In this document: in pieces, positions 479 to 16,415 of the stretch
How positions within the stretch are numbered: the stretch's first letter is position 1
How the letters are laid out: each line of letters begins with the position of its first letter
Source of the DNA: Promethearchaeota archaeon
Lineage (GTDB): Archaea; Asgardarchaeota; Lokiarchaeia; Sigyniarchaeales; SOKP01
Assembly: GCA_004524535.1 (NCBI GenBank)
Contig: SDNY01000069.1
Location: forward strand, 1-19,250
Length of the DNA: 19,250 nucleotides
Direction of reading: 5' to 3'
Notes under the pieces: generated by a model
What the model was told of the DNA's origin: nothing
What the model saw: the letters and a program-made list of their open reading frames with translations, nothing else
Databases searched by the model: none
Translations under genes and position numbers: made by a program

Positions 479-544
479 TTAATATGTTCAAAATATAATT
501 TCCATTAAATATTGAAAAGATAATAGATGTAAAATGTGAGAAAA

Positions 545-1828
545 ATGAAGAATGAATATTATGTGGGAGAAGCACTTGTTGGAACAGGTGCTGACTTAGC
601 GCATATTGATTTATTAATTGGGTCTAAGAATGGACCTATTGGAATCTCTTTAGCAAATGCGCTTAGTGAACCCTCAAAAGGACACGGCGGTTTATTAGCG
701 GCAATCCGCCCGAATTTACTTGCAAAGCCAATTACATTAATCGTACCGAAGGTAACAGTGTCAAAGATGGAAGAGGCTAATAAAATATTTGGTCCTGCTC
801 AAGCTGCCGTTGCAAAAGGAGTAGTTGATGCAGTTGAGGAAGGTCTTATTCCAATGAATAAACTTGATGAGTGGGTAATAATTGCAAGTGTTTTTATTCA
901 TCCTGGGGCAACTGACTATAGAAAAATTTTCCAGTACAACTATGGAGCAACTAAATTAGCAATTCAAAGAGCTCTAAAAGCATATCCTCCAATTGAAAAG
1001 ATATTTTATGATAAAGACAGGGCAAAGCATCCAGTAGCGGGAATACGGATCCCAAGATTATGGAGGCCGCCATATATACAAGTAGCCTTAGACGCACCTA
1101 ATCTCGAACGCCAAATAAAAGTAGTAAAAGAATTACCCAAAAGTGATCGTATTATACTTGAGGTCGGTACGCCTTTTCTCAAGAAATATGGTATGGAAGC
1201 AATTAAGGAAATTCGAGAGGTTGCAAAAGAAGCTTTCATCGTCGCTGATTTAAAAACATTAGATGTAGGAAAATTAGAAGTTGATTTTGCATTTGATGCA
1301 ACTGCTGATGGGGTTGTAGCAAGTGGTTTAGCCTCTACTGCCTCACTTGATAAATTTATCTTGGAAGCTCAGCGCCTTGGCATTCACGCGTTTGTTGATA
1401 CTATGGAAGTACAAGATCCGGTTGCGAAATTGAGTTCGCTAAAACAAATCCCCGACGTTGTTATACTTCATAGAGCAATTGATGTTGAGCAGTCTGTAGA
1501 AGGTGATCAATCGCCGGATGCCGCGCAAAAAGCAAGATGGGCTTTGGTTCCAAAAATCAAAGAATTATACAAAGAACAAAAAAAGGCTTCGGGGAGGGAT
1601 CGTGTTTTAGTTGCTGTAGCGGGAGGTATTGAGCCGAATAGCGCAATATTTGCATTGAAACAAGGAGCCGATATATTGATAGTTGGAAGATTTATAGCCT
1701 CTGCAAAAGACGTAAAATTTGCGATGAGAAGGATACTCCAAACACTACCAGGTTATCAAGATATTGATTTAAAGCGTATTCACGAGGAAGATGACGACGA
1801 ATCTGTAAAAAAAGCCACCTGGGATTGA
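545..1828 (+). CDS. fae-hps: Bifunctional formaldehyde-activating enzyme (5,6,7,8-tetrahydromethanopterin hydro-lyase) / 3-hexulose-6-phosphate synthase
   Basis: N-terminal Fae motifs GEALVG..AHIDLLIG, PKVT, FGPAQAAVAK, VFIHP, YNYGATKLAI. C-terminal HPS/OMPDC barrel motifs QVALD, LEVGTP, ADLKTLDVG, LHRAID, VAVAGGI, GADILIVGR. ATG 545 preferred over GTG 536. Confidence 0.93.
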   Translation: MKNEYYVGEALVGTGADLAHIDLLIGSKNGPIGISLANALSEPSKGHGGLLAAIRPNLLAKPITLIVPKVTVSKMEEANKIFGPAQAAVAKGVVDAVEEGLIPMNKLDEWVIIASVFIHPGATDYRKIFQYNYGATKLAIQRALKAYPPIEKIFYDKDRAKHPVAGIRIPRLWRPPYIQVALDAPNLERQIKVVKELPKSDRIILEVGTPFLKKYGMEAIKEIREVAKEAFIVADLKTLDVGKLEVDFAFDATADGVVASGLASTASLDKFILEAQRLGIHAFVDTMEVQDPVAKLSSLKQIPDVVILHRAIDVEQSVEGDQSPDAAQKARWALVPKIKELYKEQKKASGRDRVLVAVAGGIEPNSAIFALKQGADILIVGRFIASAKDVKFAMRRILQTLPGYQDIDLKRIHEEDDDESVKKATWD

Positions 1829-3047: not shown

Positions 3048-5375
3048 TTAGAGTTTAACTGGTCTACTATTGGCTGTAAAAACTGGTCCGATGATCTGGG
3101 AATAAAGGTTACAGTATTGTTCGTGATTGCTGATAACGCTAATAATTTCCGAATCTTTTTCTGAATATGGAGCAAGAATAACTTCCTCGGCATCTCGAGT
3201 TACAGCAAAATATTCTCCCTGAGTATTTAAATTGCGGAATTGAATATTGCCCAATTGCATCATCTTCTTAAGGATATCTTGGTATTGACTCAAATCCCAA
3301 TGTGTAGTGATCATAAATCTTGCTACCTTTCTCTCATATGCAAATTCAGAGACAACTTGTAAAATTTCAGGTACAACCACGGGAGTAACAATTATGATTG
3401 AAGATTTGGTTCGATACACAGCATCTTTAACAGCTGCTATTAACGCCGTTTTTCCAACCGTATGCCACGTGGTAACTTTTGCGATTTCTGAAACTGGAAT
3501 TGAGCTAGAGGCCTTATGAATATCTTTAAGTTTTGTTTCGTTAGTTTCAGCTGCTTCTGTCACATCATCAATAGCATTCATAAAATTAAGGGTAAAATCG
3601 GCAATTGCATCTTTCACATTTTGAGTAGTATCTCGAGTTGTATTAGATAAACTATTTTGTAGAGTTTCCGCATTTAGTTTGTATTTATTTTTATGATTTT
3701 CAAGCATATCAGCCAACAAACCATCCATATCAGCAGATTCTTCATTCCAAAGATTAATCTCAGCATCAATTTTTCCAGATGTATTAGATTTAGATCCATC
3801 AAAATCACTTCGAATTTTGCTTAATCTATCATTTCCAATCTTCGTATGTTTATCTTTAAACTCAGATGACTTAGCTTTAATCTCAGCATCGAAGTCGGTA
3901 TAATGCTTCAAGGATCCATCTTTATGTTTATTTATAGCATCATCATAGTCTTTATGATGTGTTTTTAAAGAATTTTCTAATGAATCTTTCAGTTTTACAG
4001 TAGTATCAGAACAATCTTTTACTCCAGTTTGTAATGTATTATCAATTTCGCCAGACATATCAGTAGCAAGCGTATCTAATTCTGCAGTAATCGTTTCTTG
4101 CGCTCTTTTATCAAGGTCAGTCGTTTCTGTTCCTAATGATTGATTCTCATTTGCCACGGTATCTGATACTTCCTTTTTTAGTTCATCAGAAGTACTTTGA
4201 GTATCCTTAATATATTTATCGCACTCATTCACAAAATCATCTTTGAATGGTCTTGAAATATCTGCAACTTCTGTTTCTATAACCTTCCAAGCATTAATAT
4301 ATTTCAATTTCTTCTTTTTTCCAAAGAAAAACCCTGTATTCGGAATTGCTTCAGCAAGATCACTAAATTTATTTGATTGGGTAATTAGATTTTCTAATAA
4401 TGTCAAGGCTCTATTTTTATATGAATTGATTATATCTTTTATTTCTAAATGTCTATTTTCGACTTTTGTATGAAGATCTGATTCAATATTACTTGTTGTG
4501 CTTTTTACATGGCTCATATGGTCAGCTAATAATCTTGAAATGCGTTCCTTTAGATCAGTAACGATTTTATCCATTCTTTCTAGGTATTTTTCAAGAATCT
4601 GTTCCATTTTAGGTTTAAGTTCATTGGCAATGTTCTTATGTCTGTCTACATGATCATCCAAATCCTTTTTTAATTCAGTTTCTAAATTGCTTACTCTTGT
4701 TGAGAAATCTCCTAATAAATCAGTAATAATTTTGTCGATATCAGTTTTGGCTGCGTTAATTGAAGTTTCATTATTTGAAACTAATGTATCTATGATTTGA
4801 TGAGATTCAGTATCAAGCTGTTTTAAATCATTGTCTAATTCTGAAAAGTCTTTTTCTATATTCTCGTGTAGATCTTTTTCTAAAGTTTTTGATGTTTCTG
4901 TAAATCTGGTCGTTGCTTTATTAATTCTTTCTTTTTTACTTGCATTCTTATCATCTGAATCTTGAAAAAATTCCTTCACTTGAGTGTCAACTGCGGTCTC
5001 AACTTCTTCGATACTTTTGTTTTGAATCGATTCCAGCTTTTCAAATCGACTAGATTGATCAGAAAGAGCATTATCTTTAGTAGTAGCAATTTTCTGTCTA
5101 AACGCTTCAGATTCGCTCGTAAATAATTCAAAAAATGGTTCGAGTGGTACGTACCTATCTATAATTCCTTCGACCTTTTGTAGAAATTTTGATTCAACGA
5201 GTTTTTTAGTAATTTCTTCAACTTCTGAATATTCAATCTCACCCTCTTCAAAATACATGAATACTTCTGAAATTGTTGCTTGTGGCACTCCAAGATATTT
5301 AATGTAGACACTAATTTCTTCTTCAGTTAACCCGTATCTCGTAAATAATTCTTTAGTAATTTCTTTCAATGACAT
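3048..5375 (-). CDS. TrmB-like protein: N-terminal winged HTH, about 550-aa helical repeat insertion, C-terminal PLD-fold (TrmB effector-type) domain
   Basis: YGLTEEEISVYIKYL..ATISEV..LVESKFLQKVEG..RYVPLEP resembles the TrmB wHTH. WHTVGKTALIAAVKDAVYRTKSSIIIVTP...VTRDAEEVILAP resembles the TrmB C-terminal domain. The middle region shows 22-aa periodicity. Confidence 0.65.
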   Translation of the reverse strand: MSLKEITKELFTRYGLTEEEISVYIKYLGVPQATISEVFMYFEEGEIEYSEVEEITKKLVESKFLQKVEGIIDRYVPLEPFFELFTSESEAFRQKIATTKDNALSDQSSRFEKLESIQNKSIEEVETAVDTQVKEFFQDSDDKNASKKERINKATTRFTETSKTLEKDLHENIEKDFSELDNDLKQLDTESHQIIDTLVSNNETSINAAKTDIDKIITDLLGDFSTRVSNLETELKKDLDDHVDRHKNIANELKPKMEQILEKYLERMDKIVTDLKERISRLLADHMSHVKSTTSNIESDLHTKVENRHLEIKDIINSYKNRALTLLENLITQSNKFSDLAEAIPNTGFFFGKKKKLKYINAWKVIETEVADISRPFKDDFVNECDKYIKDTQSTSDELKKEVSDTVANENQSLGTETTDLDKRAQETITAELDTLATDMSGEIDNTLQTGVKDCSDTTVKLKDSLENSLKTHHKDYDDAINKHKDGSLKHYTDFDAEIKAKSSEFKDKHTKIGNDRLSKIRSDFDGSKSNTSGKIDAEINLWNEESADMDGLLADMLENHKNKYKLNAETLQNSLSNTTRDTTQNVKDAIADFTLNFMNAIDDVTEAAETNETKLKDIHKASSSIPVSEIAKVTTWHTVGKTALIAAVKDAVYRTKSSIIIVTPVVVPEILQVVSEFAYERKVARFMITTHWDLSQYQDILKKMMQLGNIQFRNLNTQGEYFAVTRDAEEVILAPYSEKDSEIISVISNHEQYCNLYSQIIGPVFTANSRPVKL

Positions 5376-7299: not shown

Positions 7300-8715
7300 T
7301 TGAACTCTAATAATGAAACTTTTGAAGAATATATTCCAAGAAAATCTAAATTAGCTTTTGGTGCTCTTAACGCAGGTAATGGGGTTTTATCAGGAATAGC
7401 ATTTTCTACTATAACATTTTATTATAACGTGAAATTAGGTTTGGCGGCAGGATTTGTTGCATTAGCTTGGTTATTATTTGCCATTTGGAATACGATAAAT
7501 GATCCTCTTTTTGGTTATCTACAAGATCGTACAAAATCCAAATATGGAAGAAGAATTCCGTATGTTCGCTTTGGAGCTCCGATTATTGGGATTTTATTTA
7601 TTATTTGTTGGTTCCCTTTTGTTGATAGGACTGATGAATTCGGGCTCTTTTTAAATCTTTTAATTGTACTTTTATTATTTGATACATTATTTACAATAAT
7701 AGGCCTTATTGGCTTTTCCTTACCTGCAGAAATGGCCATTACACAAAAAGCTAGAACTGAGGTGGTGACTTATGGCGTAGTTCTCGGTGGCCTTGCATTA
7801 ATTTTCTCATTTATAATACCCGTTTTTCTTCTAACAGGTGATAAATCTACCAAAGTTAATCCAATGTTCTTAATTGCGATGATTTTCATTGGAATAATAT
7901 GTGCTTTTATTATTTTCATAAGTAGCTTTTTCTTAAAAGAAAATCTTTATACTCAACTTGAAGAACCATTAGGATTTAAAGATACTATAAAAGAAACCAT
8001 TAAAAATAAACCCTTTTTAAGATATGAAATTAGTAATTTTTCTTTTCTACTTGCTCAAACAATTTTTACAACGGGTATATTTTACTATATTGATTATGTT
8101 TTAAATATAAGTGGATATTTAACGATGGTCCCTCTCTTGCTTGTTTTTTTAATGGCATTCATCTTTACTCCCATTTTCGCCAAATTGTCGGGAAAATATG
8201 GGTTAAAAAAAGTATATATATTTGGCCTTGCATTTACTGGTATAATTTCTATCAGCTTCTTTTTCTTAGGTTGGTCTTTATTAACTGCAATCATTCCATT
8301 GCTTTTATTAGGGATTGGTTTTTCTGCGTTACTTCTTTTAAGACCAGCGATAATGGCTGATGTTATTGATTTTGACGAAACTCGTACTGGGAAGCGTAGA
8401 GAAACGAGTTATGGAGGAATGAATGCTGTAATTGAAAAACCAGCAGTCTCAATTGCAAACTGGATGTTTTTATTTGTGATTGTATATTTTGGCTTTCAAG
8501 CAAAAGCACAAACACAAGGCTTTCAAGCAAAAATGGGGATAATGGTAGCATTAACATTAATACCTGCGATATTTGTTCTGTTTAGTGCATTTATTATGAA
8601 ATTTTTCCCTTTAGATGGTCCGGAATGGAATAAGCAAAAATCAGAACTTAAAAGAATACACTATGAGAAGGAAAAAGAATATATCAAACATCTAAAAGAA
8701 CAAGGGAAAATTTAA
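7300..8715 (+). CDS. MFS transporter, GPH/MelB-like (MFS_2) family
   Basis: About 12 hydrophobic segments; IWNTINDPLFGYLQDRTKSKYGRRIPY; MADVIDFDETRTGKRRE. TTG start with GAGG upstream. Confidence 0.9.
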   Translation: MNSNNETFEEYIPRKSKLAFGALNAGNGVLSGIAFSTITFYYNVKLGLAAGFVALAWLLFAIWNTINDPLFGYLQDRTKSKYGRRIPYVRFGAPIIGILFIICWFPFVDRTDEFGLFLNLLIVLLLFDTLFTIIGLIGFSLPAEMAITQKARTEVVTYGVVLGGLALIFSFIIPVFLLTGDKSTKVNPMFLIAMIFIGIICAFIIFISSFFLKENLYTQLEEPLGFKDTIKETIKNKPFLRYEISNFSFLLAQTIFTTGIFYYIDYVLNISGYLTMVPLLLVFLMAFIFTPIFAKLSGKYGLKKVYIFGLAFTGIISISFFFLGWSLLTAIIPLLLLGIGFSALLLLRPAIMADVIDFDETRTGKRRETSYGGMNAVIEKPAVSIANWMFLFVIVYFGFQAKAQTQGFQAKMGIMVALTLIPAIFVLFSAFIMKFFPLDGPEWNKQKSELKRIHYEKEKEYIKHLKEQGKI

Positions 8716-8735
8716 ATTTATAATTTTTATTGTTT

Positions 8736-10133
8736 CTATCTTTGTTCTGTCCCTACTATTGGAACTTTCTGAAAGATGATTACAGCAATTAAGATTAAGC
8801 CACTGCCAACTACAGATATTATTAACGCGTAGGAAATTGGTGATTCTGGACCAAATAATTGCAGGATAATTGATACTATTAGCATAGAAAGAGCAGCGGC
8901 GAGCGATCCTATCATTATAAATGCCCCCGAATATGTTCCGCTCAATGATTTTCCATCAGCTTTCGATTCAGCAGAATCAATAAGATCTCCCATTATTGCA
9001 AATGGGAATGTCATCGTTCCAACCAAACTGCAAAAACAGAGGCATATTATAGCGACGCCAAATATAAACGTTAATTGATGCGTCATTGGTATAATCAAGA
9101 TTAATATAAGAGAGAACGATATACTAGAAAAGATTAAACAAATAGTGAATGTCTTCTTCAGCGAAAATTTCTGCGAAATTTTTTGCCAGATTACAAATGA
9201 AAAGATAGTTGAAATAAATCCAATCAATATCGCAATTAAAAATTCGATACCTCTTAAATCCAATACAAATGTAGCTAAATTTACGGCTAAAAATTGAAAA
9301 GCCATAAAAGGGACCCAAAATATAAAAAATGTAATTAACCATCTTCTATAATTTCTATCTTTTAAAGGCTTAGAAAGCCCTCTTAAAATGTCTTTAAATC
9401 CTGTGTGCTCTCTATTCGTCTTCTTCGGTTCTTTTATTATAAGCATCATCAGAGTCATAAGTACTAAGAAAAAGATTCCAATTAATATTACAAATAACAT
9501 AATTTGAGAATATATTGCTTGACCGGAAGCAGAATTTTTATAATATAAATTAGGATCTTCTCTCGAAAGATTTTGAGTTGCATTACTCATTAGAATGAAG
9601 GGACCAATTATCCCTATCACTATTCCTAAGATCGTCATTAGCATATTAATCATGCTAACTTTAACTCTATTTTTTTCGTCAGTGCTGAGTTCTGGAAAGA
9701 GAGCTAACATTGAAGATTGAAAAGCTCCAATCATCATTCGAAATGAAAATGAAAAAATTAAAAACCAAATTATTAATGGAAGATAAATTTGACCGTATTT
9801 TGTATCAGGGATCGGTGGCATCCAGATAAATATGAAGGCAATCGCCATCACCGGTCCAGAAATTAACATAACTTTCTTTTTTCCGATTTTATCTGCTATT
9901 GCCCCACCTATTATACACATCATTGCATAAACAACTAATCCTGCTGAAAAAATGCCCCCTACTACAATTGGGGGTTGCCCCATAATGTTGATATAAAAAA
10001 GAAGAGTAAAACTTACCGCTATTGCTAAAATTGCCTGCAACCCTGCATTTGGTAAAGTATAAGCTACTGCTTGTCCTGTTGATAATATTTTATGCTCAAA
10101 AAGAGTTTTATCTCCTTCAGATTTTTCAGTCAT
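8736..10133 (-). CDS. MFS transporter, GPH-like family (divergent)
   Basis: About 12 TM segments; GAIADKIGKKK (motif A), ALFPELSTDEKNR, AIMGDLIDS..SLSGTYSG. Confidence 0.85.
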   Translation of the reverse strand: MTEKSEGDKTLFEHKILSTGQAVAYTLPNAGLQAILAIAVSFTLLFYINIMGQPPIVVGGIFSAGLVVYAMMCIIGGAIADKIGKKKVMLISGPVMAIAFIFIWMPPIPDTKYGQIYLPLIIWFLIFSFSFRMMIGAFQSSMLALFPELSTDEKNRVKVSMINMLMTILGIVIGIIGPFILMSNATQNLSREDPNLYYKNSASGQAIYSQIMLFVILIGIFFLVLMTLMMLIIKEPKKTNREHTGFKDILRGLSKPLKDRNYRRWLITFFIFWVPFMAFQFLAVNLATFVLDLRGIEFLIAILIGFISTIFSFVIWQKISQKFSLKKTFTICLIFSSISFSLILILIIPMTHQLTFIFGVAIICLCFCSLVGTMTFPFAIMGDLIDSAESKADGKSLSGTYSGAFIMIGSLAAALSMLIVSIILQLFGPESPISYALIISVVGSGLILIAVIIFQKVPIVGTEQR

Positions 10134-10308
10134 AACTTTTTCCTAATTAAATCGCTTTATATGTAAACTATAAATTTAATCCTTAAATATTAATTTAATT
10201 ATTCTCTCAAATATAAATTTAAATCGATATATGGGGAAAGTTATTCCTTAAGCCTTTTTAAATCAAATCAATTTTATTTTTTTAGAACAAATTTGAGTGA
10301 TAAAAAAA

Positions 10309-11001
10309 ATGACACAAATGAGTAAAATTTTATTTGGGTTATTTCTGGTATCATCATTCATATCTGGATTTATGATATATAATGTTGAAGATGTAGCAGC
10401 GGCAAAAGACGATGAGAAAGTTGATATAGATGATGGTAAGAGAATTCAATATTTTGTAATGGCTGAAAATCAAATAAGGTTTCGTTTCGAGGAAAAAACA
10501 AGGGTAACGTTCGAAGCAAATAAACCCGCAAATTTGGATATAAAATGTGATGGTGAAAGAATCGGAGATAAAGATTTTGAAATTGAAGTCGAGGCTGATA
10601 GAGCTTTTAATATGACAATGAACTGTAAAGAAGAACAAAATACAAAGGGACTTAGAGAAGGTAATATTATTGAAGCACGTAATCGCGTACGATATAGGTA
10701 CCAAGAAGGTTTTGTTGCCGATATTGAATGTACGGAAGATTGCGACGCAAAATTAAGGATTCAAGAAACTGATCAGAATAGAGGAGGTACATGGGCTTAT
10801 TATGACGAAGAAGATGAGGAATGGGTTCCTGTTGAAACAACTAGTGAAGATGGATATTTAGAATGTGAAACAGATCATTTTTCAACTTGGACTGTATTAG
10901 TACCTGAGACAGATTACACATTAATAATTTTGATTGGAGTTGGAATCGGAGCTGCAATCTTAATTGGGGCTGCTGTTATAATAATAAAAAGAAGAAAATA
11001 A
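10309..11001 (+). CDS. Single-pass surface protein with beta-rich ectodomain and juxtamembrane H-F-S (GPS/GAIN-like) motif
   Basis: N-terminal signal peptide (KILFGLFLVSSFISGFMIYNVEDVAA); WAYYDEEDEEWVPVET...YLECETDHFSTWTVL; C-terminal TM helix plus KRRK. ATG 10309 preferred (GAGTGA upstream) over GTG 10297. Confidence 0.7.
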   Translation: MTQMSKILFGLFLVSSFISGFMIYNVEDVAAAKDDEKVDIDDGKRIQYFVMAENQIRFRFEEKTRVTFEANKPANLDIKCDGERIGDKDFEIEVEADRAFNMTMNCKEEQNTKGLREGNIIEARNRVRYRYQEGFVADIECTEDCDAKLRIQETDQNRGGTWAYYDEEDEEWVPVETTSEDGYLECETDHFSTWTVLVPETDYTLIILIGVGIGAAILIGAAVIIIKRRK

Positions 11002-11080
11002 AGACCAGAAATAATTTTTTTAATCAATATCTAAATTTTTTTTTTTATATTAAATTTATTAAAAAAAGGATTGATAATAG

Positions 11081-12358
11081 TTGGTATTTATATCAATAAC
11101 TAATAAATGGAAAAAACGTGGATTTTGTTTTTTACTTCTAATTATTATTCTTCTAGAATTTAGTATATTAATTTCTATGGGATTCGCAAGAAAAGACACT
11201 TATATTTCTGGATATTCAAAAAAAGGAGAAGTAAATCCTGGTGAATCAAAATCTTATCTTTTTTCGAATAATAACAGATTACAAATCAGTACAGATGTGC
11301 TTATTCATCTTGATATTGAATATGATAAAAAAATCGAAAATCGTGAAATATCTCTTGATATTAATAATAATGATCACAGTCATAATCCTCTCTCTCTCGA
11401 AATAAAATCAGAACGAAGTATGGAAAGTTTTGGATTATCAAAAACTCCAAAAGAACCAAAAAACGGAGATTTTGAGTTAAGATCTCAATATAACTGTATT
11501 TATCTTATAAAATCTAACTCATCAATTGAAAAAATAAAATTAGAATTCATAAAAGATAATAAATATGGTTTGGATCCCCTTATAGAATATTCAATAGCGA
11601 TATATGAAGAAGATGAAAATTCGTGGGAATTAGTAGATACGGAGGAAAAAGTTGATGAACCAAATTCAGAAACTTACTTGGCAGCTAGCATTAAAGAGCT
11701 TGAAGCAGATACTGACTATTATATTACAATTTACGAAGTGAGTTATTGGTCTTATGTATGGATATGGACATTAATCATATTTTCTATAGGAGTTATCTCT
11801 TTAGTAATTTTAATTTCAAAAAAGGATTATATTCATTATTTAAAGACAAGAACTACTTCATATTCCAAAGGAGCTCATCGTTTAACATTGGAAGAAGTTT
11901 TAGAAAACGAAAATCGAAATAAAATAATAGATTTAATATTAGAGGAACCAGGAATTCATTTTAATGAATTATTGAGGAAAACTGAGCTTGCAGCTGGAAA
12001 TTTAGTATGGCATCTAGATATATTAGAAACATATAGAATTATAGGAAAAAAAAGAATTGCGAATTATATTGCATATTTTCCCTATTATCAAAAAAATCCA
12101 ATTTCCAATATAGATCTAAAGCTCAGTAAAAGCAAATTATCATTAGAAATATTGGAAATGATTGAAAAAGAACCTGGAATTTGGAATAATTTAATAACTA
12201 AGAGATTGAAAGTAGATCATAAAACCACCTCTTATCATATAAAAAAATTGGCCGAGCTTGATTTAATCTATATAAAAAAGTCAGGCAGAAAAAAGAAAAT
12301 ATATCCCAATCTTGAATCAGATTACTTTATAAAAAAAAATCACAATGTTAACTCTTAA
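11081..12358 (+). CDS. Membrane-tethered transcriptional regulator: signal/TM, ectodomain, TM helix, tandem winged-HTH (COG3398-like)
   Basis: Hydrophobic N-terminus; second TM WSYVWIWTLIIFSIGVISLVILIS followed by KK; two wHTH repeats RNKIIDLILEEPGIHFNELLR..LVWHLDILE and EILEMIEKEPGIWNNLITKRL..TSYHIKKLAELDLI. Confidence 0.78.
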   Translation: MVFISITNKWKKRGFCFLLLIIILLEFSILISMGFARKDTYISGYSKKGEVNPGESKSYLFSNNNRLQISTDVLIHLDIEYDKKIENREISLDINNNDHSHNPLSLEIKSERSMESFGLSKTPKEPKNGDFELRSQYNCIYLIKSNSSIEKIKLEFIKDNKYGLDPLIEYSIAIYEEDENSWELVDTEEKVDEPNSETYLAASIKELEADTDYYITIYEVSYWSYVWIWTLIIFSIGVISLVILISKKDYIHYLKTRTTSYSKGAHRLTLEEVLENENRNKIIDLILEEPGIHFNELLRKTELAAGNLVWHLDILETYRIIGKKRIANYIAYFPYYQKNPISNIDLKLSKSKLSLEILEMIEKEPGIWNNLITKRLKVDHKTTSYHIKKLAELDLIYIKKSGRKKKIYPNLESDYFIKKNHNVNS

Positions 12359-12450: not shown

Positions 12451-12774
12451 ATGAAAAAGAAAGATCACGATAAACTTCCTATTGAAAATCAGAAGTTTCA
12501 AACCGTCAATTCAATACAGAATCATACGTCTAGCTACATTAATGATAAATTAAAAGAATTAGAACTTGTTGCTGATGAATTAATTAAATTTGCCATGTGG
12601 AGATGGGAAAGAAATCCAAAAGAAAAAGATATCATCTTAAAAGAAACTGAAGATTGGTTAAATCAAAGAATTGGGCACGGATCTATAGGACCCGCAACAG
12701 CTGCCGCTGGACCACTATTAAGAGAAAAAACAGAGGAATTAAGGGTATTATTTAAAAAAGATTTCTATAAATAA
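12451..12774 (+). CDS. Hypothetical helical protein (107 aa)
   Basis: ATG-started ORF filling the gap between co-oriented genes with protein-like composition; no family recognised. Confidence 0.6.
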   Translation: MKKKDHDKLPIENQKFQTVNSIQNHTSSYINDKLKELELVADELIKFAMWRWERNPKEKDIILKETEDWLNQRIGHGSIGPATAAAGPLLREKTEELRVLFKKDFYK

Positions 12775-15965: not shown

Positions 15966-16415
15966 TTATATTATTGATTTCATTAATTCAATAAATTCCT
16001 CAAAATTTATTTTATCATCTCCATCCATATCTACTTCTTTTAACATGGCTCTGATTTGCATCTCATTTAAATTTTCCCCTACTTCTTTCATAATACGTTT
16101 CAATTCATCTAAAGTAACATATTTATTTCCATCGCAATCACATATCTTAAAGGCTTCTATTAGTTTTTCTTCTTGGACTTTAAAATGTATGTATTTCTTA
16201 TATAAGCTCAAGAACTCATGGAACGTAATATATCCATCCTGATTCAAATCATTATCATTCATCATTTCTAAGAGCTCTTTTTCTGTAAAATGATGTCCAA
16301 GTGCTTCATAAACATTTCCTAATTCATTGATCGTTATAGATCCACTTCTATCTTCATCAAACAAGGCAAATTGCTCTCTTATATTATGTAATTCTTCATC
16401 TCCAATTTCAAACAA
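15966..16415 (-). CDS. Calmodulin-like four-EF-hand protein (149 aa)
   Basis: EF loops DEDRSGSITINE, DLNQDGYITFHE, DCDGNKYVTLDE, DMDGDDKINFEE at calmodulin spacing; TTG start with GAGGG about 10 nt upstream. Confidence 0.92.
   Translation of the reverse strand: MFEIGDEELHNIREQFALFDEDRSGSITINELGNVYEALGHHFTEKELLEMMNDNDLNQDGYITFHEFLSLYKKYIHFKVQEEKLIEAFKICDCDGNKYVTLDELKRIMKEVGENLNEMQIRAMLKEVDMDGDDKINFEEFIELMKSII

Follow-up and report, generated by a model that had tools for sequence, protein, structure and literature searches.

A two-gene unit of Asgard archaea sets a stand-alone MAIN/GAIN-B-like surface protein beside a membrane-tethered winged-helix regulator with a paralogous ectodomain

A 19,250-nucleotide (nt) stretch of DNA from a Promethearchaeota archaeon, hereafter the window (contig SDNY01000069.1, assembly GCA_004524535.1; GTDB lineage Asgardarchaeota; Lokiarchaeia; Sigyniarchaeales; SOKP01), carries two adjacent genes that form a unit passed on by vertical descent; among the genomes searched, the unit occurs mainly within a single order of Asgard archaea. 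An open reading frame (ORF) check recovered gene 1 at 10309-11001 and gene 2 at 11081-12358, both on the plus strand, where a preliminary description of this DNA had placed two neighbouring co-oriented genes (10309..12358); the window's genome holds one copy of each. The product of gene 1 fits a minimal membrane-anchored MAIN domain (Microbial Autoproteolysis INducing domain; Brogan and Rudner, May 2026, bioRxiv 10.64898/2026.05.12.724683), with a microbial GAIN-B/ZU5-like fold and the catalytic H-F-S kept, and gene 2 encodes a membrane-tethered regulator built on a paralogue of the same ectodomain. We propose that the two proteins signal across the membrane as one unit that controls its own promoter, a reading that we infer as a whole chain and regard as evenly poised.

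The comparisons below draw on two sets of collected relatives (130 for gene 1, 43 for the gene 2 ectodomain), on genome loci (108 relatives found, 80 loci kept), and on a library of 1.84 billion representatives searched with the gene 1 profile, of which the best 150 representatives were scored for motifs and domains.

Gene 1 encodes a stand-alone ectodomain with an invariant HFS motif

From its ATG, gene 1 (10309..11001) encodes 230 amino acids (aa) laid out as a type I membrane protein: a predicted signal peptide (hydrophobic N-terminal helix at residues 3-24 of the model), a stand-alone MAIN/GAIN-B-like ectodomain, a transmembrane (TM) helix and a terminal KRRK. The structural model (predicted local distance difference test, pLDDT, 84.8; predicted template modelling score, pTM, 0.71) was reported as confident, and the strands named below were taken from it. 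The ectodomain (10411..10905, about residues 35-199, 165 residues; this and all other features of the two genes lie on the plus strand) is an all-beta sandwich whose sole helix is a four-residue one at 82-85, with no helical GAIN subdomain A. Only some 10 residues separate the signal peptide from the domain, a spacing that leaves no place for a large N-terminal adhesion or enzyme passenger. At the other end no UPA subdomain follows; the TM helix (10915..10986, about residues 203-226) comes next, and after it KRRK and the stop codon. This single TM helix is joined to no cytoplasmic domain, and gene 1 is not a fusion to a 7TM or 11TM (seven- or eleven-helix) region.

Near the end of the ectodomain, the segment ETDHFSTWTVLVP (10867-10905, translation confirmed) contains the HFS codons (10876..10884; H190, F191 and S192), the predicted autoproteolytic site HF/S. 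The motif occupies the turn between the last two strands, which border it at 183-188 and 193-199, and the model helix 203-229 begins 11 residues past S192. H190, F191, S192, W194 and T195 are invariant across 63 aligned gene 1 sequences, and HFSx[WFY] occurs in 78 of the 80 gene-1-type ORFs of the genome loci, the other two having no match to the pattern. Translation and model agree with the preliminary description, which had read a TM helix with a KRRK end, an HFS motif and no cytoplasmic domain from the letters. Further afield, H[FLYW][ST]x[WFY] was present in 126 of the 150 best library representatives, the motif typically standing 11-30 residues ahead of the TM segment where one was found. 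Two or three HFS-type motifs occur in 25 of these 150, and tandem HFS-bearing domains, two or three before one TM helix, were seen in P0063, P0166, P0218, P0240, P0301 and others. If every tandem copy were cut, the product would be several fragments linked non-covalently.

For MAIN domains of several Bacillota proteins, YfkN of B. subtilis among those tested, the F/S cut within HFS has been shown by Edman degradation and S-to-A mutants, and the fragments remain associated after cleavage (bioRxiv 10.64898/2026.05.12.724683). As described in the available text of that preprint, the usual MAIN protein runs from a signal peptide through large adhesion or enzyme domains to the MAIN domain and a surface anchor, with an average size of 158 kDa; MAIN is reported there from bacteria and archaea, with no signalling associated and with release proposed, and the terms Asgard, Lokiarch and helix-turn-helix are absent from the main text (bioRxiv 10.64898/2026.05.12.724683). 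Gene 1 shares with MAIN, so described, a secreted GAIN-B-like beta sandwich, HFS in the last beta turn and an anchor directly C-terminal. It differs in that its domain stands alone, whereas MAIN proteins carry adhesion or enzyme passengers; in that its anchor is a TM helix, whereas bacterial MAIN anchors are usually sortase signals or SLH domains; and in that it is paired with a presumably cleavage-dead paralogue bearing a cytoplasmic DNA-binding module, or is fused to that module in three proteins. The gene 1 profile also matched a 1460-aa surface protein (E 2e-7) with Big_2, Shr-like (Ig-like) and Fn3-associated domains, three SLH domains and three YYDE..W..DHF[TS] repeats (ending DHFT or DHLT), and it reached P0290, P0304 and P0308, in which fn3 or PKD domains are followed by an HFS-type domain and a TM helix. 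These distant matches have the architecture that the preprint describes. By analogy with the tested MAIN, GAIN and FIIND domains, the HFS copy probably cleaves itself.

The preliminary description had recognised no described archaeal system in this module. That statement stands for the output, no signalling being described in the available text on MAIN, and falls for the domain type, which has already been published under that name. Our literature searches found no paper that joins a GAIN domain with Asgard, found the MAIN name in the preprint bioRxiv 10.64898/2026.05.12.724683 only, and returned for HVO_0163 only an unrelated acetylome study; papers on archaeal membrane-bound winged-helix regulators, judged by title and abstract, included none on this system.

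Fold searches for the gene 1 ectodomain are led by GAIN and FIIND/ZU5 domains

A structural comparison with GAIN and ZU5 domains had been suggested in the preliminary description, and these families, with FIIND, lead the fold searches. Foldseek against the Protein Data Bank (PDB) gave the GAIN domains of BAI3 (E 0.033) and BAI2 (E 0.087) as best matches to the gene 1 model. VIA-align, which is independent of Foldseek and covered 48,161 representative chains, ranked at the top the GAIN domains of CELSR1 (Z 7.2), BAI3 (7.1) and CD97 (6.6 and 6.5) and the FIIND of CARD8 (6.1), with ankyrin ZU5 and NLRP1 FIIND lower in the list. A second-look search returned BAI3 (4dlo_A, Z 7.5, root-mean-square deviation (rmsd) 3.5, 127 aligned), CELSR1 (8vy2_A, 7.2, rmsd 3.4, 128 aligned), CD97 (6.6 for 8ikj, rmsd 3.9, 124 aligned, and 6.5), BAI2 (6.5) and the rat NLRP1 FIIND (6.4); these top six rows are all GAIN or FIIND chains, with Z of 6.4-7.5 and 124-128 residues aligned. 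Below NLRP1 came a tail chain of phage SSV19 (6.0) and then the ZU5 domain of ankyrin (5.0-5.8). Nine of the top ten second-look rows belong to two related self-cleaving beta-sandwich families, and the alignments reach the C-terminal end of the domain.

The end offsets, which are taken from alignment ranges and presume ungapped ends rather than a residue-by-residue match, set S192 on S531 of CD97 in two entries (8ikj, 204 to 543; 9mqr, 201 to 540) and on S969 of rat NLRP1 (7crw, 201 to 978). According to the available text of the two reports, CD97 S531A was made to block cutting of the G protein-coupled receptor (GPCR) proteolysis site (PMC12519206), and rat NLRP1 is cut between F968 and S969, with S969A left uncleaved (bioRxiv 10.1101/2020.08.13.250241). 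The HFS motif singled out in the preliminary description falls at the GAIN/FIIND cleavage-site position. Judged by its model, the gene 1 ectodomain resembles GAIN subdomain B and ZU5/FIIND.

The GAIN domains of the adhesion GPCRs BAI3, CELSR1 and CD97 are the best structural matches (Z 6.5-7.5). They share with gene 1 an H-hydrophobic-S/T in the last turn and a TM helix within about 10 residues of the last strand, and uncleaved members exist among them, the BAI2 entry 8oek being titled 'in the uncleaved state'. Gene 1 differs in having neither GAIN-A nor a 7TM region and no detectable sequence similarity to them; a separate chain, paralogous to it, would supply the output in the form of a transcription factor. 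The ZU5/FIIND domains of NLRP1 and CARD8 are likewise beta sandwiches (Z 5.3-6.4) cut before Ser and after Phe (F968/S969 in rat NLRP1), in a family where non-cleaving (ankyrin) and cleaving members stand side by side. They are cytosolic, eukaryotic and followed by UPA, CARD or death domains, whereas the gene 1 domain lies outside the cell with a TM helix after it. PIDD is a further autoproteolytic protein of the ZU5/FIIND type.

Several results pull against these likenesses. Foldseek returned nothing from the PDB at E 0.001 or better for the gene 1 model; no VIA-align Z reached 8, the scores being middling throughout, and the fold tool's own caution is that models without a clear match typically reach a best Z of 7-8. 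A sequence search of the PDB with the gene 1 profile gave 0 chains at E up to 10, gene 1 matched no Pfam or NCBIfam family above cut-off, and the likeness to MAIN is one of motif, fold and architecture as described.

Gene 2 encodes a membrane-tethered regulator with a paralogous ectodomain

Gene 2 (11081..12358) starts at a TTG and encodes 425 aa, a type I membrane-tethered regulator composed, in order, of a predicted signal peptide (hydrophobic N-terminal helix), an all-beta ectodomain (11189..11746, residues ~37-222), a TM helix (11747..11821, residues ~223-247; model helix 223-257), a poorly modelled linker and two winged helices. The first winged helix, PF24266 HTH_HVO_0163_N (11906..12085, residues 276-335), scored 58.9 bits against a cut-off of 31, and the second, the ArsR/MarR-like PF13412 HTH_24 (12134..12268, residues 352-396), 40.9 bits against 21.9; both Pfam domains of this HVO_0163-like tandem exceed their gathering scores. 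The fold search matched the C-terminal domain of gene 2 to ArsR (6j0e_B, Z 11.8, rmsd 3.5, 87 aligned) and MarR (3bpx_A, Z 11.4), with SmtB also matched; winged-helix proteins filled the list for the whole gene 2 model, so these hits do not report on the ectodomain. A structure search of the Atlas with the ectodomain found the ZU5 part of an LRR-ZU5-Death (leucine-rich repeat, ZU5, death domain) cluster at a TM-score of 0.55, which is a lead only. The one other match to the winged-helix tandem in the window's genome lies on contig C65 at 8432-8893 (plus strand; locus L104), a 246-aa frame covering profile positions 253-409 without an ectodomain.

The preliminary description had also claimed that the two ectodomains are paralogous, from an alignment by eye in four blocks. 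BLASTP recovered all four collinearly (E 0.014, 20% identity over 196 columns), a result that is marginal alone. With ectodomain-only profiles, whose input alignments had been stripped of signal peptides and TM helices, hhalign gave a probability of 96.6%, E 5.1e-10 and a score of 65.6 over 139 columns; the controls scored 12.9 and 14.3 for reversed profiles, at most 15.6 for 30 column shuffles and at most 21.9 for 30 ten-column block shuffles. In the fetched loci, each ectodomain hidden Markov model (HMM) cross-matched the product of the partner gene at about E 1e-4 to 1e-15, and the library-wide search with the gene 1 profile found gene-2-type proteins (P0126 at 5e-9, P0296 at 2e-6 and P0302 at 3.9e-6). 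Strand order is identical in the two models. Profile comparison, shuffled controls and cross-matching HMMs all agree with the claim, and the sequence evidence firmly supports the two ectodomains as true paralogues.

At the position equivalent to HFS, gene 2 has Y-Y-I (codons 11717..11725; local sequence DTDYYITIYEVSY) within the consensus D-T-[DE]-Y-[YF]-[IVF]-T. Histidine stands at the first motif position in none of the 67 aligned gene 2 segments that span the site (66 loci and the window). The absence of HFS and the intracellular tandem winged helix-turn-helix, both proposed earlier, are evident from Y-Y-I and from PF24266 and PF13412. Because Y-Y-I replaces HFS in every homologue examined, the gene 2 ectodomain, which has neither the catalytic His nor the Ser, should be a dead copy that does not cleave.

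Conceivably, HFS is a structural turn motif and there is neither cleavage nor signalling, both products being envelope proteins and the winged helices anchoring DNA or another partner at the membrane instead of regulating. Such an account would sit well with the middling fold scores and with a subfamily known from sequence and models alone. We nevertheless judge it very improbable: His and Ser are lost in all 67 gene 2 segments and invariant in gene 1, which is the pattern of active and inactive enzyme paralogues; HF/S cleavage has been proven in bacterial domains of the same motif context (bioRxiv 10.64898/2026.05.12.724683); and the winged helices exceed the Pfam cut-offs and resemble the ArsR and MarR repressors.

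The pair is conserved across one order and occurs as natural fusions

A gene-2-type ORF lies directly downstream of gene 1, on the same strand, in 69 of the 80 genome loci, and the winged helices are visible in 65 of these 69, the other four ending at a contig edge; in 5 of the 80 the contig stops within 200 bases of gene 1. Among canonical genome loci with enough downstream DNA, the pair is present in 69/69, which upholds the conserved adjacency proposed at the outset. The pair also occurs in 14 metagenome loci, and adjacency persists down to ~40% identity. Across the phylum, 94 of 301 sampled genomes match the gene 1 profile. Strong matches were given by 67 of the 75 other genomes of the order, which divide into 60 of 68 for the window's family and 7 of 7 for its sister family; outside both families, the matches listed reach only E 1e-6 to 1e-11, which is weak, and those with stated coverage are confined to the C-terminal part. 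Flanking genes are partly syntenic in the 80 loci (a 775-aa protein in 54, a nitroreductase in 51 and an M24 peptidase in 32), which points to vertical inheritance. On this sequence record, conservation of the gene 1/gene 2 pair across one order of Asgard archaea is firm.

Two library proteins, P0011 and P0013 (384 aa, 67% identical to gene 1), join an HFS ectodomain and a gene-1-like TM helix, without a break, to gene 2's juxtamembrane segment and winged-helix tandem. P0229 (481 aa), divergent and compositionally different, follows the same fusion plan with an SHFSTF motif. These three fusions tie the surface-protein and regulator halves together. The winged-helix tandem occurs in 5 of the 150 best library representatives, with HFS in 2 of those 5. 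A word-based search for relatives of the P0229 ectodomain returned P0229 itself alone, and the metagenome scan did not return the contigs carrying P0011 and P0013.

A promoter element and a T tract mark the locus

Upstream of gene 1 we found a 34-nt promoter element (10230..10263) that combines an imperfect dyad (GGGrAA..TTATTCC) and TyAAnCC with an abutting TATA-like TTTTTAwA; its consensus is ATTGGGaAAaATTATTCCTCAATCCTTTTTATAT. Counted upstream from the gene 1 ATG, the element starts at 79 nt and its TTCCTyAAnCC core at 65 nt. Of 90 usable upstream regions, 76 contain the core with two mismatches or fewer, in a single orientation and with its start mostly at -61 to -68 relative to the gene 1 start, and degenerate core copies occur in the other 14 (12 among the matches listed). 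A genome-wide position weight matrix scan (3.66 Mb, 7.3 million positions) gave a single site above 12, at 10230-10263, with a score of 38.6. For a 23-nt sub-motif, gene 1 scored 30.8 and the next best site in the genome 15.9, the training minimum being 25.8. GGATTG before the gene 2 start was considered as a second copy of the promoter core and dropped, as it occurs in only 3 of 92 spacers.

The 79-nt spacer between the genes contains a T7 tract (11015-11021) and a T11 tract (11036..11046). A run of at least seven T was present in 79/79 gene 1/gene 2 spacers, with a median longest run of 10 and a start about 24 nt past the gene 1 stop; shuffling the spacers left such a run in 10 of 79 on average and in 18 at most, and flanking segments had one in 6 of 75 and 11 of 74. 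Oligo-T tracts terminate archaeal transcription, and by its sequence the spacer tract is a probable archaeal terminator or attenuator after gene 1, with gene 2 probably expressed at a lower level by read-through or from its own promoter. An Rfam scan of the window gave no match, and a scan for sigma-70 promoters and hairpin terminators, models not applicable to archaea, gave nothing above shuffles. The 34-nt element, unique in the genome, and the conserved T tract are new observations here.

Other observations from these loci count against the two genes acting as one unit. Six of the 80 genome loci hold a longer, insert-bearing paralogue of gene 1 with no regulator within ~4 kb, and two of the six come from genomes that also hold the pair. 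In metagenome loci L098 and L101, the gene-2-type regulator is preceded by a 191-aa membrane protein without HFS. No observation ties the promoter element to the gene 2 regulator in particular; it also precedes the unpaired insert-bearing paralogue (in all 5 loci that have upstream DNA, with scores of 25.8-48.4), and the T tract suggests that gene 1 and gene 2 need not be co-transcribed. Gene 1, having no passenger, also has no handle of the kind used by the MAIN/GAIN force model. The insert-bearing paralogue (L072, L075, L077, L078, L079 and L081, matched near position 4001 in most of them) is ~290 aa long with its insert in the ectodomain. At L098 (3688-5552), and likewise at L101, the regulator is divergent, and its 191-aa neighbour is unmatched by both ectodomain HMMs and has no C-terminal TM helix; the promoter element recurs there as a weak copy with a score of 11.7.

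The main rival to a signalling unit is a regulator and its target that make no contact: gene 2 would sense some ligand on its own, as a one-component system, through its pseudo-MAIN ectodomain, and gene 1 would be a surface protein under its control, releasing the ectodomain in the way proposed for MAIN proteins of bacteria. It would account for a promoter element that precedes gene-1-type genes whether paired or unpaired, for the T tract between the genes in 79/79 spacers and for the unpaired gene 1 paralogues, and it accords with the preference for release over signalling in the available text on MAIN (bioRxiv 10.64898/2026.05.12.724683). It leaves unexplained why sensor and target should be paralogues, why an HFS ectodomain substitutes for the regulator's own in P0011, P0013 and P0229, and why adjacency persists to ~40% identity, and we hold it to be rather unlikely.

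Next among the rivals comes a decoy paralogue, in which headless gene 1 pairs with gene 2 and prevents DNA-binding homodimers or shields the regulator from proteolysis, self-cleavage merely setting the turnover of gene 1. Regulator and accessory membrane protein form an established pairing in ToxR/ToxS and TcpP/TcpH, where TcpH protects TcpP from proteolysis; gene 1 has the architecture of gene 2 minus the DNA-binding module, and the T tract would leave gene 1 the more abundant partner. Heteromer formation is without support, however, and that H, F, S, W and T never vary in the aligned sequences suggests selection on the cleavage site beyond what turnover would seem to require. This version seems to us unlikely.

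Other genes in the window

The DNA just upstream of gene 1 encodes two convergent MFS_2 sugar-type transporters (7300-8715, plus strand; 8736-10133, minus strand). They recur in only 3 and 4 of the 80 related loci, so the syntenic block has probably received a local insertion there. Directly downstream of gene 2, a 107-aa ORF (12451-12774, plus strand) has no family match and recurs in 3 of 80 loci. The 775-aa protein upstream of the pair (3048-5375, minus strand) has only a sub-threshold, apolipoprotein-like (coiled-coil) match. Elsewhere the window encodes a 149-aa calmodulin-like EF-hand protein (15966-16415, minus strand; PF13499 at 1.3e-31, EF-hand_1 in three stretches) and a 430-aa fusion of formaldehyde-activating enzyme (Fae) and an OMPdecase/HUMPS-family protein (536-1828, plus strand).

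Discussion

In the signalling unit that we propose, gene 1 would cut itself between F191 and S192, leaving a fragment of ~160 residues held non-covalently on a 39-residue stub that runs from the last strand through the TM helix to KRRK. The outer fragment would either remain in place as a cap or be stripped off by force, a ligand or envelope damage. The uncleavable paralogue, gene 2, would read this state through the related ectodomains or the TM helices, and the reading would alter DNA binding by its winged helices. The likeliest target would be the unit's own promoter with its 34-nt dyad-plus-TATA element, which is found nowhere else in the window's genome, and the T tract after gene 1 would probably keep the regulator far scarcer than the gene 1 product. 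A complex prediction for gene 1 residues 35-201 with gene 2 residues 37-222 scored 0.00 in both runs, which speaks neither for nor against binding. The preliminary description had inferred a heterodimer of duplicated ectodomains in which shedding or loading of the partner controls the regulator; the sequence evidence upholds the paralogy, adjacency and HFS motif on which that idea drew, so that it is partly supported, while the heterodimer and control by shedding would be its predicted parts.

Membrane-tethered one-component transcription regulators include ToxR/ToxS, TcpP/TcpH, CadC and ArnR of Sulfolobus, and in the Vibrio pairs ToxR/ToxS and TcpP/TcpH an adjoining gene encodes an accessory membrane protein. 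ToxR-type regulators carry an N-terminal cytoplasmic OmpR-type or other helix-turn-helix and, in ToxR/ToxS-type pairs, a periplasmic domain to which the accessory protein binds; the accessory proteins are not known to be paralogous to the sensor domain, and no autoproteolytic domain is known to take part. The winged helices of gene 2, in contrast, are C-terminal and ArsR/MarR-like, in the opposite topology, and the accessory protein encoded by gene 1 is a paralogue of the gene 2 sensor domain. A prokaryotic transmembrane route through a self-cutting outer domain has a parallel in RsgI/SigI, where, in the available text, the extracytoplasmic self-cut leaves the pieces held together and their separation is proposed to yield a transcriptional response (PMC10328401; bioRxiv 10.64898/2026.05.12.724683). 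That system differs in its SEA-like fold, in the freeing of an anti-sigma factor by intramembrane proteolysis, and in being a bacterial single chain without a paralogous partner.

Asgard archaea are the archaeal lineage closest to eukaryotes, and the unit described here sits in Asgard archaea; eukaryotic adhesion GPCRs use GAIN. Tentatively, and as a possibility that we would not favour at present, GAIN-type signalling may predate eukaryotes, with loss of the cap from the gene 1 TM stub, by force, contact or envelope damage, switching transcription from a dedicated promoter via gene 2. If true, a microbial MAIN domain would here have a cytoplasmic output for the first time, adhesion-GPCR or Notch logic would have its prokaryotic counterpart, and the single-chain fusions P0011, P0013 and P0229 would be the simplest form of such signalling. 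MAIN would then be linked to a DNA-binding output in two ways, via a cleavage-dead paralogue or by direct fusion of the cleavable domain. With a defined candidate operator and small soluble domains, the locus offers a testable form of the missing link between MAIN and signalling.

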